Shown piece after piece: positions 4,656 to 36,757 of a stretch of 64,000 bases of DNA. Under the pieces are notes generated by a model that saw nothing but the letters and a program-made list of their open reading frames with translations, was not told the DNA's origin and made no database searches. Made by a program: the position numbers and the translations under genes. The stretch covers positions 1,216,001 through 1,280,000 of the forward strand of contig CAWDVR010000001.1 of NCBI GenBank assembly GCA_963805975.1, written 5' to 3'. The stretch is from an uncultured Acidobacteriota bacterium. Lineage in GTDB: Bacteria > Acidobacteriota > Thermoanaerobaculia > Multivoradales > SZUA-115. Numbering within the stretch: position 1 is the stretch's first letter; every line of letters begins with the position of its first letter.

Positions 4656-4737
4656 CCGCTCGCTCGCGGCGTTCTGTCCCGTTCAGCGGGCGTGGTAGCA
4701 TTCTTCACGCGAACACGCGATCCCTCGGAGGTTTCCG

Positions 4738-32212: not shown

Positions 32213-33442
32213 TCAGAACCGCGACAGATCTCGGCCGAAGAGGCGGCTCTTGATCCAGTCGAAGAGCACCTTGACCTTGTTGGCCAGGCTCACTAGCTTG
32301 GTCAGGTAGACCGAGCGCCAGAACAGCCAGGCGACCCGGCCGCTCCACTTGAATTGCGGCAGGTCGGCCAGCGCGCGGCCGCCTCCGATGTAGGCGAGCA
32401 TGCCTTGCGGCCTGAAGCGAAAGGGCGGTACTTCTTCACCGACCGCGAGCCTGGGAAGCGACCGTGCCAGGTACTTGCCTTGCTGCTGTGCGACCTGGGC
32501 GGTAGCCGGCAGCGGTGGCTCTGGCGAGGCGCAATCGCCGGCCGCGAAGACTCCCGGCAGGCCGGGCACTCGCAGCCAGGCATCGACGGCGAGGCGCCTG
32601 CCCTCCCCCATCGGCTCGCCGAGCGTCGAGATGAAGGGTACCGGGGCGTTTCCTCCGGCCCAGATGACCAGGCCACAGTCCAAGACCTCTCCACCCTCGA
32701 GCACCACCCGATCGGGCCCCACCTCCGTCACCCGCACGGAAAGCCGCAAGTCCACTCCTTCCCGCTTGAACTGGCTCTGGGTGTAGTCGGCCAAGGCCTC
32801 GTCGAAGCCGCGCAGAATCCGCGTCCCGGCTTCGAGCAGGAGAACACGGGCGTAGCGGGCGAGATCGCCATAGCTGCGCCGTATCTCGTGGTCGAGCAAG
32901 TCGTCGAGCTCGGCCGCCACCTCGACGCCGGTTGGACCGGCCCCGCAAACCACGAAGGTCAGGCGGCGGGCGATCTCCTGCTCGGAGATGCCGGGGACAT
33001 TGGCCTTGCCGAACTGCGCGAGCACGCGCTGGCGGATCTCTCGCGCCTGCTCCACCGAGGTAAGGGTGAGCGCGTAGGGATCGACCCCGGGAACTCCGTA
33101 GTCGGACACTGCACTGCCGACGGCGATCAACAGCACGTCGAAGGGCAGCGCGAACTCCTCTCCGGTCAGGACGCTCCGGCACCGCACCTGCCGTGAGGCG
33201 CGATCGAGGGCCAGGGCCTCGGCCTCGATCACCTTCACCCACCGCAGGCGGCGTCGGGCGGGCTCGAGGATGCTGCGGAACTCGACGGTGCCGGTGACCG
33301 CGGACGGCAGCAGCGGGGTGAAGAGGAAGTAGTTGCGCGGCGTGACCAAGACCGCATCCCAGTCACGCGCCTTGGCGCGTGACAGGAGCGAGTAGCCTGC
33401 GAACCCACAGCCGAGGACGATCAGTTTTTTCTTGGAGCTCAT
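32213..33442 (-). CDS. ndh: Type II NADH:quinone oxidoreductase (NDH-2)
   Basis: GCGFAG, FLFTPLLPS, GAGPTGVE, PATAQVAQQQG. Confidence 0.9.
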   Translation of the reverse strand: MSSKKKLIVLGCGFAGYSLLSRAKARDWDAVLVTPRNYFLFTPLLPSAVTGTVEFRSILEPARRRLRWVKVIEAEALALDRASRQVRCRSVLTGEEFALPFDVLLIAVGSAVSDYGVPGVDPYALTLTSVEQAREIRQRVLAQFGKANVPGISEQEIARRLTFVVCGAGPTGVEVAAELDDLLDHEIRRSYGDLARYARVLLLEAGTRILRGFDEALADYTQSQFKREGVDLRLSVRVTEVGPDRVVLEGGEVLDCGLVIWAGGNAPVPFISTLGEPMGEGRRLAVDAWLRVPGLPGVFAAGDCASPEPPLPATAQVAQQQGKYLARSLPRLAVGEEVPPFRFRPQGMLAYIGGGRALADLPQFKWSGRVAWLFWRSVYLTKLVSLANKVKVLFDWIKSRLFGRDLSRF

Positions 33443-33505: not shown

Positions 33506-34069
33506 TCAGCGCAAACCTGCTCCACCGTCAGGACGCCTGGCGAGGAGCACTTGCCGGGTCATCGCCGTCAGGCAACGCGAGGTCAGCTTGCCGATGCTGG
33601 CCGGGCGATAGCCGAGCAGGCGAGCGACCTCGGGAGGCTCGAGACCCAGGCAGTACCGCAGGTGCAAGAGCACCCGACAGCGAGCAGAGAGGCGGCCCAG
33701 CAGCTTGGTCACATCGCACCACAGCTCGGCCCTCTCCTGGGGCGGCGGCACCCCTGCAGCGAGCCACTCGAGAACGGAGACCTCGGCCGCGTCGTAGAGC
33801 CGGCGCCTCTGCTGGCGCCAGTACACCAGGCATCCTTTGCGCAGCGTTCCGATCAACCAGGCTTCGGGCTCACGGATGCTCGCCCAGTGGTAAACCAGCG
33901 CGAGCAGAGCCTGCTGCAGGACGTCCTCGGTGTCGTCGGCCGGGATGCGGTACTGGGAGAGCACCCGCCGGAGGTGAGGGCGGACCCGGGTGAGAAAGCT
34001 CTCGAATGCGGTCGAAGATTCGGGGGAAAGAAAAAGACTGCGCGAAAAGTTCTCTCGTTCGGTAACCAC
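33506..34069 (-). CDS. ECF-type sigma-70 family factor (paralog 3)
   Basis: Region 2 (DTEDVLQQAL, EAWLIG) and region 4 HTH (EVARLLGYRPASI); start uncertain (GTG 34069 or 34114). Confidence 0.75.
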   Translation of the reverse strand: MVTERENFSRSLFLSPESSTAFESFLTRVRPHLRRVLSQYRIPADDTEDVLQQALLALVYHWASIREPEAWLIGTLRKGCLVYWRQQRRRLYDAAEVSVLEWLAAGVPPPQERAELWCDVTKLLGRLSARCRVLLHLRYCLGLEPPEVARLLGYRPASIGKLTSRCLTAMTRQVLLARRPDGGAGLR

Positions 34070-34143
34070 CGAACCGAGGATAGCCGAAAGGCGAAACCCC
34101 GGCAAGGAGGCCACACGAGGCAGAGCGGAGCGGGCCCTCCCGA

Positions 34144-34686
34144 TCAGTCGAGGTCGGGAAGAAGCGTCGTCTGGCTGAAGCCTGCCTCGAGCAGCTCCCG
34201 GGTCAGCGAGGCGAGGCAGCGGCTGGTGACCTTGCGGATGCTGGACTGCCGATAGCCCATCCGCTCGGCGACCTCCGAGGAGCTACAGCCCAGCCCGTAG
34301 CGAAGGCGGAGCAAGGAGCGACAACGGGGCGGGAGCTTGCAGACCAGGCGATCGAGATCGTAGCGCAGCTCGGCCTTCTTCTGGCTGGGTGCCTCCGGCT
34401 CGGACAGCAGCTCGAGGATCGCGGTGTCCACTGCCTGGAAGAGGTGCTTCCGCTTCTTGCGCCAGTAGATCAGGCAGCGGTTGCGCAGCGTGACGATCAG
34501 CCACGCCTCCGGGTTGCGCACCACGTCCTGCTTGTGAATCAGGGTAAGAAAGGTTTCCTGGAGAACGTCGTCGGCATCCTGGGACGGGATGCGGTAACGG
34601 CCGAGAATCTGCACCAGCTTGGGCTGCACGTCTCGCAGGAGATCTTCGAAGACGACCGGCTCAGGAGCAGCGAAAGGAATGGTCAT
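34144..34686 (-). CDS. ECF-type sigma-70 family factor (paralog 2)
   Basis: DADDVLQETF, EAWLIV, EVAERMGYRQSSI; AGGAGG RBS before ATG 34686. Confidence 0.8.
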   Translation of the reverse strand: MTIPFAAPEPVVFEDLLRDVQPKLVQILGRYRIPSQDADDVLQETFLTLIHKQDVVRNPEAWLIVTLRNRCLIYWRKKRKHLFQAVDTAILELLSEPEAPSQKKAELRYDLDRLVCKLPPRCRSLLRLRYGLGCSSSEVAERMGYRQSSIRKVTSRCLASLTRELLEAGFSQTTLLPDLD

Positions 34687-34693
34687 AATCCTC

Positions 34694-35245
34694 CTAGAGC
34701 ACCGGGTCCGCAGGTTCTTCCGGCACTTCCGGCAGGAAGCCAACAGCGACCAACTGCCGGTTGAGCGCCGCCAGGCAACGGCTTGCCACCTTGCGAATGC
34801 TCGAGGCCCGGTAGCCCAGACGATCGGCGACCTCGGCCGGCTTGTATCCCAGCCCGTAACGGAGGCGAAGCAAATTCTGGCACCGCGCCGGCAGACACTC
34901 GAGCGCGCGCTCCAGATCGTGTGAAAGCTCCGACTGCGCCTGTTCCGGTGAGGCCGGTTCCGCCAGCAGCTCGAGGATCGCGGAGTCCACCGCGTCGGTC
35001 AGGCGTGAGCGCCGGCTGCGCCAATACATCAGGCAGCGCCGCTTGAGCGTGGCCAAGAGCCAAGCCTCGGCGCTGTGGATCTTCTCCCACTTGTACAAGA
35101 GGGTCAGAACGGAGTCCTGGATCAGATCCTCCGCATCCTGGGGCGGGATCTGGTAGTAACAGAGGATCCGTTCCAGCTTCGGCTGAACCTTGGGTACCAG
35201 GCGGTTCAGCGATTCCCAGGCAGAAGGGTCGTCAAGAGTCGCCAT
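34694..35245 (-). CDS. ECF-type sigma-70 family factor (paralog 1)
   Basis: DAEDLIQDS, EAWLLA, EVADRLGYRASSI; start at 35245 or 35257. Confidence 0.8.
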   Translation of the reverse strand: MATLDDPSAWESLNRLVPKVQPKLERILCYYQIPPQDAEDLIQDSVLTLLYKWEKIHSAEAWLLATLKRRCLMYWRSRRSRLTDAVDSAILELLAEPASPEQAQSELSHDLERALECLPARCQNLLRLRYGLGYKPAEVADRLGYRASSIRKVASRCLAALNRQLVAVGFLPEVPEEPADPVL

Positions 35246-35575
35246 GCGAATTCCCATACCCTCCGAACGTTGTCTCCCTGCCGGCTGATGGGAGATTCTA
35301 TCCCATCTCCAGCCCGAGACCTCGATCCTTTGCGCCGCTGCCGGCCATTCTCTCGGGAGATCCAGCTCATGCAACGGGGTCGCGCCGAATCATTCCCAGG
35401 TCTCTATATGCTAACACCACCGGCCGAACCTGTCTACAGTTTTTCTCAGTGCAGCACTGTTGTCGTTTCCCCGTCGGAGACTTGGCATACTCGGCGGACT
35501 AACCCAGACTTTCGCGAAAGTAGAGAAGGAGAGATGAGGCACTCTCTTTTGGGTACGGTCCCTACACGCCAGGCT

Positions 35576-36757
35576 CTATGCCCCGATACCGGCCACGACC
35601 TCGCCCGGTACTCCGGCCGCCGCCCGGATCTCTGCCGCACGGTCCGTCCGCTCCCAACTGAAACCCGATTCGGCGCGGCCGAAGTGGCCGTATGCCGCGG
35701 TCTGCCGATAGATCGGCTGCCGCAGAGCGAGGAACTCGATGATGCCGCGCGGGGAGAGCGGGAAATGCTCGCGCACCAAGCCCTCGATCCGGCGATCGTC
35801 GATGCACCCCGTGCCCCGGCTGTCGACGTGGATGGAGACCGGCTCGGCAACGCCGATCGCATAGGCGAGCTGGATCGCCACGGTGTCCGCCAGGCCGGCC
35901 GCCACCAGGTTCTTGGCAATGTGCCGGGCCATGTAGCTCGCCGAACGGTCCACCTTCGTCGGGTCTTTGCCCGAGAACGCCCCTCCCCCGTGGCTGCCCA
36001 CGCCGCCGTAGGTGTCGACGATGATCTTGCGGCCGGTCAGGCCGCAGTCTCCTTGCGGCCCGCCGATGACGAAGCGGCCGGTGGGGTTGATGTGGAAGAT
36101 GGTGTCGCCGTCGATCCACTGGCTGGGGATCACCGGGCGGATGACGCCCTCGATGACCTCCGCTTTCAGCTCGTCGAGGGGAACGTCCGGATGGTGTTGC
36201 GTGGAAACGACGACCGTGTGCACCCGGCTCGGCCGGCCGTCGGCATACTCGACGGTCACCTGGCTCTTGCCGTCCGGGCGCAACCAGCGGATCTCGCCGC
36301 TGCGCCGCGCCTCGGCCAGGCGGCGGGTCAGCTTGTGCGCCAGGGTGATCGGCAACGGCATCAGCTCGTCAGTCTCGCGGCAGGCGTAGCCGAACATGAT
36401 CCCCTGGTCGCCGGCGCCGCCGGTGTCGACGCCCATCGCGATGTCGGGCGACTGCGGGTCGATCGCCGAGATCACCGAGCAGGTATTGCCGTCGAAGCCG
36501 ATCGCGGCGTCGTCATAGCCGATGTCGAGGATCACGCCGCGCGCCACGCGCGCGAAGTCGACCCGGGCCTGCGTCGTGATCTCGCCGGCGAGGAACGCCA
36601 AGCCGGTCGTGACCAGGGACTCGCAAGCCACTCGGCTCGTGGGGTCCTGCTTCAGAACCTCGTCGAGGATGGCGTCGGAGATCTGGTCACAGACCTTGTC
36701 GGGGTGCCCCTCGGTCACCGACTCGGAGGAAAAGAGGTAGTGGTGCGCTCGGCTCAT
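35576..36757 (-). CDS. metK: S-adenosylmethionine synthetase
   Basis: [33 protein letters not shown]. Confidence 0.98.

Follow-up and report, generated by a model that had tools for sequence, protein, structure and literature searches.

What keeps three neighbouring extracytoplasmic function (ECF) sigma factors in check when no anti-sigma factor is encoded beside them? The question is raised by a 64,000-nucleotide stretch of DNA (hereafter the window; contig CAWDVR010000001.1, positions 1,216,001 to 1,280,000, forward strand) from the genome of an uncultured bacterium of the Thermoanaerobaculia, phylum Acidobacteriota (5.36 Mb, 96% complete), in which three paralogous sigma-factor genes, here called P1, P2 and P3 and together the trio, lie in tandem. 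Comparison with relatives suggests that the trio is likely the partner-less form of a larger array, and that peptide genes and genes for ZT proteins (an N-terminal zinc motif followed by a tetratricopeptide repeat, or TPR, body) have been lost from this locus. We put at roughly even odds (about 0.5) the reading, drawn from such comparisons, that ZT proteins encoded elsewhere in the genome act on the trio in trans as peptide-sensing anti-sigma factors.

The trio and its array in relatives

The three genes and the cysteine codons discussed below are placed as follows.

34694..35245, minus strand: P1, ECF sigma factor of clade A, 183 aa (open reading frame, profile matches, tree, dN/dS)
35035, 34882 and 34777, minus strand: starts of the P1 codons for C71, C122 and C157, respectively
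34144..34686, minus strand: P2, ECF sigma factor of clade B, 180 aa, with an extra clade-B cysteine, Cys134
33506..34114, minus strand: P3, ECF sigma factor of clade C, start uncertain

As the original prediction, made from the sequence alone, had proposed, these are adjacent, co-oriented ECF-like genes: intact minus-strand open reading frames (ORFs) between metK and ndh that share all five of the sequence motifs it listed. Each protein exceeds the cut-offs of Sigma70_r2 in Pfam and of TIGR02937 and matches sigma4, below the cut-off in P3; sigma2 and sigma4 without sigma3 is the layout of ECF (group 4 sigma70) factors, a predicted model of a trio sigma matches ECF structures, and there is, as foreseen, no C-terminal regulatory extension. 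The acidic core-binding motif of region 2.2 reads DAED, DADD and DTED in P1, P2 and P3, and the D and Q columns of that region are 88-97% kept in family representatives. Pairwise identities within the trio are 56, 46 and 48% (160-164 aligned residues), and the ratios of nonsynonymous to synonymous divergence (dN/dS) against the same-genus ortholog, 0.044 for P1, 0.083 for P2 and 0.14 for P3 (0.15 for ndh), indicate that each of the three is under purifying selection.

The family set consisted of 179 locus rows, reduced to 168 by merging identical rows and brought to 169 by adding a fourth full-length paralog from this genome. A quick maximum-likelihood tree of these rows places P1 in clade A (support 95), P2 in clade B (96) and P3 in clade C (82). 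A recent triplication was considered and rejected, as the three clades are old and dS is about 0.8-1.3.

The context of these clades became apparent in 20 stretches from relatives. In other families of the order the full array runs promoter, peptide, sigmaA, ZT, sigmaB, promoter, peptide, sigmaC, ZT, and in families f3 and f7 a gene for a ZT protein of about 460 aa follows some of the sigma genes. A ZT gene, or its zinc-less form, stands after the sigma gene in 27 of 38 cases in clade A and 24 of 53 in clade C, and after none in clade B (0/31), clade B2 (0/26) or the basal group (0/21); in 45 of 45 measured pairs the ZT zinc motif begins 2-24 nt past the sigma stop codon. The ZT proteins behind clade A group apart from those behind clade C (clade support 94 and 100), so that sigma and ZT appear to have been duplicated as units. 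Sigma-only arrays occur in three families, the window's own (f1), f2 and f11. Because the clade-A sigmas of the window's family, seven in number, branch between partner-bearing branches, partner loss is the simplest reading, and the trio is likely an array stripped of its peptide and ZT genes; no peptide remnant was found ahead of P1, P2, P3 or the fourth paralog. Seven of eight low-copy genomes have a family sigma gene directly ahead of a ZT-type gene. The earlier claim that no anti-sigma is present therefore needs to be divided: it stands for this locus, where the neighbours, NDH-2 and MetK, are neither anti-sigmas nor kinases, but not for the family, whose clade-A and clade-C sigmas in relatives have ZT genes directly downstream, nor for this genome, which has 14 ZT-type genes elsewhere.

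These data also bear on the view that the three genes are ordinary redundant duplicates without a common system, tied to ZT proteins, peptides and the promoter-like motif described below by shared ancestry only. All supporting genomes are kin, and several genomes of the family have no P3 at the locus, both of which would suit such a view; the co-divergence of sigma and ZT, the gene overlap, the purifying selection on all three genes and the lone cassettes of distantly related genomes, one of them a Myxococcota bin, nevertheless make it very improbable.

The family itself appears to be found almost only in Thermoanaerobaculia. The named homologs of the trio belong to that class, and a GTDB scan with 266 confirmed stretches, of which the best 80 were taken, yielded 69 loci, of which one lies in a Myxococcota bin, one is unlabelled and the rest are from Acidobacteriota. 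At 50% identity the family's members fall into 258 clusters (E up to 1e-30). In a set of 41 genomes from the order, the sigma family is present in 30, each with ZT genes as well; four have ZT genes only, and seven have neither. No NCBIfam ECF subfamily exceeded its cut-off for P1-P3, and no fitting group description was found among the supplement passages of PMC7826278 on Acidobacteria (18) and on TPR (16). The suggestion that this might be an unclassified ECF group is thus borne out as far as these descriptions reach, and we conclude that the trio belongs to a real and probably undescribed ECF family, set apart from known groups by comparison with those descriptions. What atlas look-ups returned was limited to Acidobacteriota sigma clusters without names and to weak zf-HC2 leads at 0.83. 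Factors of the phosphorylated ECF43 type have S/T in place of DAED and an adjacent kinase; control of this kind was rejected because DAED is kept, and no kinase is adjacent.

Several members of the family stand apart. Clade B2 (L092-L127, 26 rows) is very conserved and single-copy, with no ZT, peptide or motif nearby, and the distant members P0247, P0265, P0237, P0255, P0241 and P0210 carry 130-300 extra residues that resemble an integrase N-terminus by eye.

ZT proteins, peptide genes and the TGTC-N21-AC motif

ZT proteins combine an N-terminal H-x3/4-C-x2-C motif, mostly H-x4-C-x2-C, with a TPR body. In an alignment of 72 rows chosen for the motif (the oversize ZT of locus L080 was excluded from this alignment, A5), H30, C34 and C37 are invariant and H5 is kept in more than 90%; TPR_12 is found in 70 of the 72, and no membrane helix was found among the 72 scanned (1/72 reaches 1.9). 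The predicted model (pLDDT, a per-residue confidence score, of 90) has helices 8-15, 21-33 and 35-44, a short helix 50-56 and a helix 68-102, followed by the TPR solenoid. Passages of PMC7406223 describe class I zinc anti-sigma factors as soluble proteins with a zinc motif, a three-helix bundle and a helix 4; ZT proteins share the zinc motif with an upstream ligand and, in the predicted model only, the bundle, linker and helix 4, and the partner gene directly downstream is seen in relatives and not at this locus. The N-terminus matches the ChrR anti-sigma model in 11 of the 72 proteins and zf-HC2 in eight of them, all below cut-off, and in one protein (P0125) a zinc anti-sigma-type domain is naturally fused in front of a clade-C sigma. 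The TPR part aligns with eukaryotic TPR structures at Z 22-25 (24.7 and 23.0) and with Rap and NprR at Z 20. A complex prediction of P1 (residues 6-172) with the N-terminal 120 residues of a ZT protein from this genome reached 0.13 at best against a mark of 0.32, which is evidence neither way.

The 14 ZT-type genes of this genome are distributed across all six contigs, and the zinc motif is present in seven of them. A peptide-motif ORF lies at most 900 nt upstream of 9/14, compared with 8 of 500 control genes, and in five relatives a peptide gene was read by eye beside the ZT gene at 21 of 30 loci. The predicted products have a signal peptide, a Trp-rich helix and at least one C-terminal G-x-x-x-D-P/G-x-G unit; many contain several tandem copies of the motif, in a variant specific to each cassette, and some are only 30-36 aa long and lack a clear signal peptide. 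Metagenome-assembled genomes of Thermoanaerobaculia carry 14-40 ZT-type genes each, together with many biosynthetic clusters. Two cassette loci have features of their own: the ZT profile match of L061 (C2:839130-840602 of this genome) is split over two frames (1-351 and 352-442), and at L051 (C5:627000-629100) two back-to-back peptide/ZT cassettes surround integrase-like fragments and an apparent tRNA end, as read by eye.

Further sigma-related genes lie elsewhere in this genome.

C1:1331276-1331950 (L059:3277-3951), minus strand: fourth full-length paralog, clade C, without C122
C5:626021-626260, C5:45124-45414, C4:146601-146860 and C5:412380-412640: four sigma2-only ORFs

The sigma2-only proteins retain part of the core-binding region and lack sigma4; such ORFs precede 2 of the 14 ZT-type genes here and lie directly ahead of 10 of 30 ZT genes in five same-family genomes. 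Directly after the fourth paralog comes a gene of 726 aa whose C-terminal part is SARP/BTAD-like.

The promoter-like motif TGTC-N21-AC ahead of the peptide genes is new here. A two-block Gibbs search over 47 peptide leaders gave nothing above shuffled sequences (10.8 versus 9.2-10.0), and after this unbiased search had failed the motif was derived by reading TGTC contexts in peptide-gene leaders. With the 47 leaders as training set and a second set of 35 leaders from ten later genomes, a few of them wrongly called peptides, 19 of the 47 training leaders and 8 of the 35 held-out ones have the spacing of 21, compared with 1.2 and 0.8 in shuffles and 0 and 1 on the reverse strand. Two loose two-box patterns fixed on the training set proved weak (5/35 and 3/35 held-out) and were dropped. 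The exact pattern TGTCH-N18-GCACT has 346 sites in 22 genomes with an expanded family, against 112-151 in three controls (2.6-fold), and exceeds all controls in 19 of the 22; the ratio is 1.04 in eight low-copy genomes and 11 genomes lacking the sigma family. In this genome, 46 non-coding matrix hits compare with 22 and 19 at wrong spacings; its sites include C1:196153 and C5:44870 of the C type and C2:575381 and C1:196648 with A before AC.

The placement of the motif is reminiscent of autoregulation. It is found in 7 of 34 clade-A leaders, with C before AC in all seven, and in 19 of 31 clade-C leaders (11 of the 19 outside the training set), with A before AC in 17; in both clades it lies 380-580 nt ahead of the sigma gene, at the head of the peptide-sigma-ZT unit. 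It also stands ahead of lone cassettes in genomes G010 and G034 and at L135, all outside the training set, and at L088 and L133, which were in it; G010 and G034 have no genome-wide excess. Within 400 nt of the other sigma genes in this genome the motif is absent. Because of this autoregulation-like placement we infer that the sigma family likely reads the motif. Among described groups, passages of the supplement of PMC7826278 give TGTC -35 boxes for ECF37, 41, 42, 103, 131, 250 and 288, and a predicted promoter TGTCA/CGCAC for ECF131. Back-to-back TGTC-N21/22-AC pairs before lone cassettes (L133:9396-9470, L135:5200-5310 and L248:4590-4680) suggest a second, divergent target. Within the window, a hit scoring 14.1 at 4672-4706 on the plus strand, with an imperfect -10 part, lies 66 nt before a 621-aa ORF without a Pfam match.

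A gene follows 31 of the 46 non-coding hits in this genome. Signal-like N-termini are found in 13 of these 31, compared with 38 of 291 in the background, and the genes (20/31 scanned, 10 of them without a Pfam match) include peptide, ZT, FKBP, subtilase, amidohydrolase and nonribosomal peptide synthetase (NRPS) genes. One may postulate from this that the exported peptide is a monitor and not a signal between cells, its tail reaching the cytoplasmic TPR protein only when export or processing stalls, so that the sigmas would answer to the state of secretion or the envelope. The proportion of signal-like targets, among them an FKBP foldase and a subtilase, the peptides of 30-36 aa without a clear signal peptide, and the two membranes that hinder re-import would all accord with this. 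Tandem motif copies that vary by cassette are, however, as in RRNPP propeptides, and dozens of distinct pairs per genome suit many channels better than one monitor; we consider a monitor unlikely.

Proposed control in trans and the predicted regulatory sites of the trio

Under the reading that we favour, control in trans by ZT proteins, a ZT protein would bind a sigma factor through its zinc three-helix bundle and helix 4 and hold it inactive. The peptide would be exported, trimmed and taken up again, its tail would bind the TPR part of the ZT protein, and the ZT protein would release the sigma, which could then start transcription at TGTC-N21-AC promoters. The targets would be the peptide and ZT genes, so that feedback would be both positive and negative, and a set of proteins of which most are exported; the -10 boxes read by clade A and by clade C would differ slightly (cAC versus aAC), and the C122-C157 pair in sigma4, discussed below, may add a redox layer, as in SigK.

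This interpretation must be made cautiously, and a series of observations weighs against it. None of the 14 ZT-type proteins of this genome falls in the A- or C-linked ZT clades (FastTree), and control in trans is an assumption because the genome holds no such cognate ZT. Four full-length family sigmas face 14 ZT-type genes, half of them without the zinc motif, and clade B is never accompanied by a ZT gene. Anti-sigma models match ZT proteins weakly and in a minority, and the fold does not single out peptide binding, since eukaryotic TPRs align better than Rap and NprR. Re-import of a peptide is harder in a two-membrane cell, and only two PF00496 binding-protein genes were found in this genome. 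As for the motif, its spacing was read from output that displayed training and held-out sites together; plain TGTC, fixed on the training set, is not enriched in held-out leaders (14/35 versus 13.4 in shuffles); the exact pattern has no excess in three of the 22 expanded-family genomes, which are kin and not independent; and the motif is not ahead of the cassette in six of eight low-copy genomes and is missing from all 26 B2 and all 14 basal leaders. About 35 other sigma2-bearing genes in this genome could each encode the factor that reads it.

The sites around the trio point to a further possibility. Together with the flanking genes, they are as follows.

35408..35436, minus strand: predicted sigma70-type extended -10 promoter of the trio, TAGACA-17-TG-n-TAGCAT
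34077..34105, minus strand: predicted sigma70-type promoter of P3, TTGCCG-17-TATCCT
35431..35458, plus strand: family-type site TGTC-N21-ACT, matrix score 14.0
35576..36757, minus strand: metK, a conserved landmark upstream of the array and not a regulator
32213..33442, minus strand: the NDH-2 gene (ndh), the downstream neighbour, at this locus in some relatives only

The promoter of the trio was the only hit of its scan (0.2 expected), and its TG-n-TA block is kept in five of five aligned family genomes. That P3 may have a promoter of its own, as foreseen, is supported: TTGCCG-17-TATCCT lies below the threshold of the consensus scan and is conserved in the sister genome of the same genus, which has TTGCCA-18-TATTCT there. 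The family-type site on the plus strand occurs at the same place in the same-genus genome (score 13.4), and its TGTC box overlaps the -35 of the predicted trio promoter; it could give negative feedback on the trio, which we regard as a lead only. A perfect 6-bp inverted repeat, CAGTGC-A-GCACTG (35447-35459), overlaps the -10 of this antisense site and is partly kept in the sister genome. No family-type site is directed into P1, P2 or P3, and the sigma cascade that had been proposed is therefore not seen.

Such sites would allow a scenario in which the trio has been freed from anti-sigma control, is set by sigma70-type promoters (perhaps with the antisense site) and acts as a master regulator of genes with TGTC-N21-AC, the dispersed ZT proteins serving sigma2-only proteins or other targets. 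The absence here of ZT orthologs of the A or C partners, the sigma-only arrays in f1, f2 and f11, the conserved sigma70-type promoters before P1 and P3, and the sigma2-only ORFs directly before 10/30 ZT genes would all fit; P1 and P2 are nevertheless very conserved, every genome with the sigma family retains ZT genes, and the zinc motif is intact in seven ZT proteins here, so that we judge this scenario unlikely. In an extended version of the peptide-sensing reading, a soil bacterium with two membranes would run a peptide signalling network of many channels whose output is the trio, with about 14 cassettes converging in trans on three orthogonal ECFs, sigma2-only proteins as decoys, TGTC-N21-AC promoters, in which C or A stands ahead of AC depending on the clade, driving the cassettes and a regulon of secreted proteins and NRPS, and a sigma4 disulfide as redox gate; we offer it tentatively, as a doubtful but possible picture.

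The gene boundaries are in part settled by the same comparisons. P1 starts at 35245, the alternative ATG at 35257 reading ACG in the same-genus genome, and the ribosome site of P2, AGGAGG, overlaps the stop codon of P1. P3 ends at 33506 and starts at GTG 34114 (202 aa) or GTG 34069 (187 aa); the GTG start of its same-genus ortholog is absent here, and within 34069-34114 a leaderless GTG 7 nt past the predicted -10 box is the likeliest start. The gene metK lies on the same side of the array in relatives' loci L031, L032, L037 and L043-L047. A soil metatranscriptome contig of 1020 nt, the longest among the matches listed in 20 kb and about 97% alike, spans 34331-35350 (P1 and most of P2); it was not used as evidence because one contig gives neither strand nor a single transcript.

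Cysteines, known systems and significance

P1, P2 and P3 have five cysteines each, and the three described earlier as conserved in all copies (C71, C122 and C157 in P1) are indeed common to them; they are not invariant, as the fourth paralog lacks C122. Conservation in homologs holds among close homologs, where C71, C122 and C157 are retained in 165, 157 and 159 of 169 rows, but not among distant 50% representatives, where C71 is kept in 139, C122 in 78 and C157 in 84 (best 149-150). C122 and C157, both in sigma4, are the top co-varying of 11,871 column pairs (z 11.3, 138 representatives), with both present in 74 representatives, neither in 55 and one in 10. The pairs of C71 with C122 and C157 rank 5155 and 10069, which is no coupling, and because C71 does not co-vary with the other two no three-cysteine site is indicated; the pattern fits a disulfide or packing pair. 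A sigma4-only search of solved structures gave no hits.

These residues might themselves be the main switch, through a C122-C157 disulfide or metal site in sigma4 that needs no protein partner. The strength of the co-variation would speak for this, as would the sigma4 disulfide of SigK (ECF19), which passages of the supplement of PMC7826278 describe beside an anti-sigma and propose also for ECF18; the trio resembles these in having two conserved sigma4 cysteines, possibly at other positions. The pair is absent, however, in about 40% of distant members, C71 is uncoupled, an independent-pairs test found only 2-4 pairs on supported branches (not significant), and FliA has a cysteine in the C157 column, where Ala is the usual residue, which suits a packing role. 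Passages of PMC7826278 and PMC8999054 assign to the metal-sensing ECF238 (CorE) a linker with CxC and a C-terminal domain rich in Cys, and passages of the supplement of the former assign to ECF57 a sigma2 cysteine paired with a sigma4 cysteine and a membrane-bearing C-terminal extension; P1-P3 differ from both, having neither CxC linker nor Cys-rich tail, no extension, and a C71 coupled to neither C122 nor C157. Cysteines as the principal switch thus seem quite unlikely, and since C122 and C157 are lost in about 40% of distant members a thiol switch would be a second layer at most. Of the earlier proposal of thiol-redox or metal control, the co-varying sigma4 pair remains in its favour, and the lack of the ECF238 features speaks against it.

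Intracellular peptide receptors with a neighbouring propeptide gene have been described for Bacillota. Like these RRNPP(A) systems (Rap-Phr, NprR-NprX, PlcR-PapR and AimR-AimP), the ZT system sets the gene of a small secreted propeptide next to that of a TPR protein of the cytoplasm, does so many times in one genome, repeats its peptide units and has a similar TPR fold (Z 16-20), with a marginal sequence likeness (E about 1e-3). Unlike them, it belongs to a two-membrane host of the Acidobacteriota, has a zinc anti-sigma-type N-terminus in place of a helix-turn-helix or the three-helix effector bundle of Rap, and has a sigma factor as predicted output. It resembles RpoE/ChrR of Rhodobacter, SigR/RsrA and ECF270/ECF271 in a sigma of sigma2 and sigma4 only and a soluble partner, encoded directly downstream in relatives, with a His/Cys zinc motif, three-helix bundle and helix 4 (predicted in ZT). 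It differs from these in that the ZT sensor is a 370-residue TPR solenoid and not a cupin or absent, the motif is mostly H-x4-C-x2-C, a peptide gene heads the unit, and the partners are missing at the trio locus and multiplied elsewhere. DdvS/DdvA of Myxococcus xanthus likewise couples an ECF to a zinc three-helix anti-sigma domain with a TPR region; as parts of PMC11506125 describe it, DdvA is a membrane protein whose periplasmic TPR-CHAT region is released by proteolysis, whereas ZT proteins have neither membrane helix nor CHAT and are accompanied by a peptide gene. The trio system would operate in the manner of an ECF under a soluble zinc anti-sigma, in an RRNPP-like layout, and is not a member of RRNPP. 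Our literature search, with subscription journals mostly outside it, returned nothing on ECF or other sigma factors of Thermoanaerobaculia or on the motif, and no such peptide-receptor system in Acidobacteriota or with ECF output; for RRNPP with anti-sigma factors, the matches listed were Bacillota work only.

If the favoured reading is true, a peptide-controlled sigma switch of this kind has not been described before. The trio and a concrete promoter consensus open the system to tests in E. coli, with no need to grow the host, from four small parts (sigma, promoter reporter, ZT protein and synthetic peptide), and would then provide new orthogonal, ligand-switchable ECF parts.

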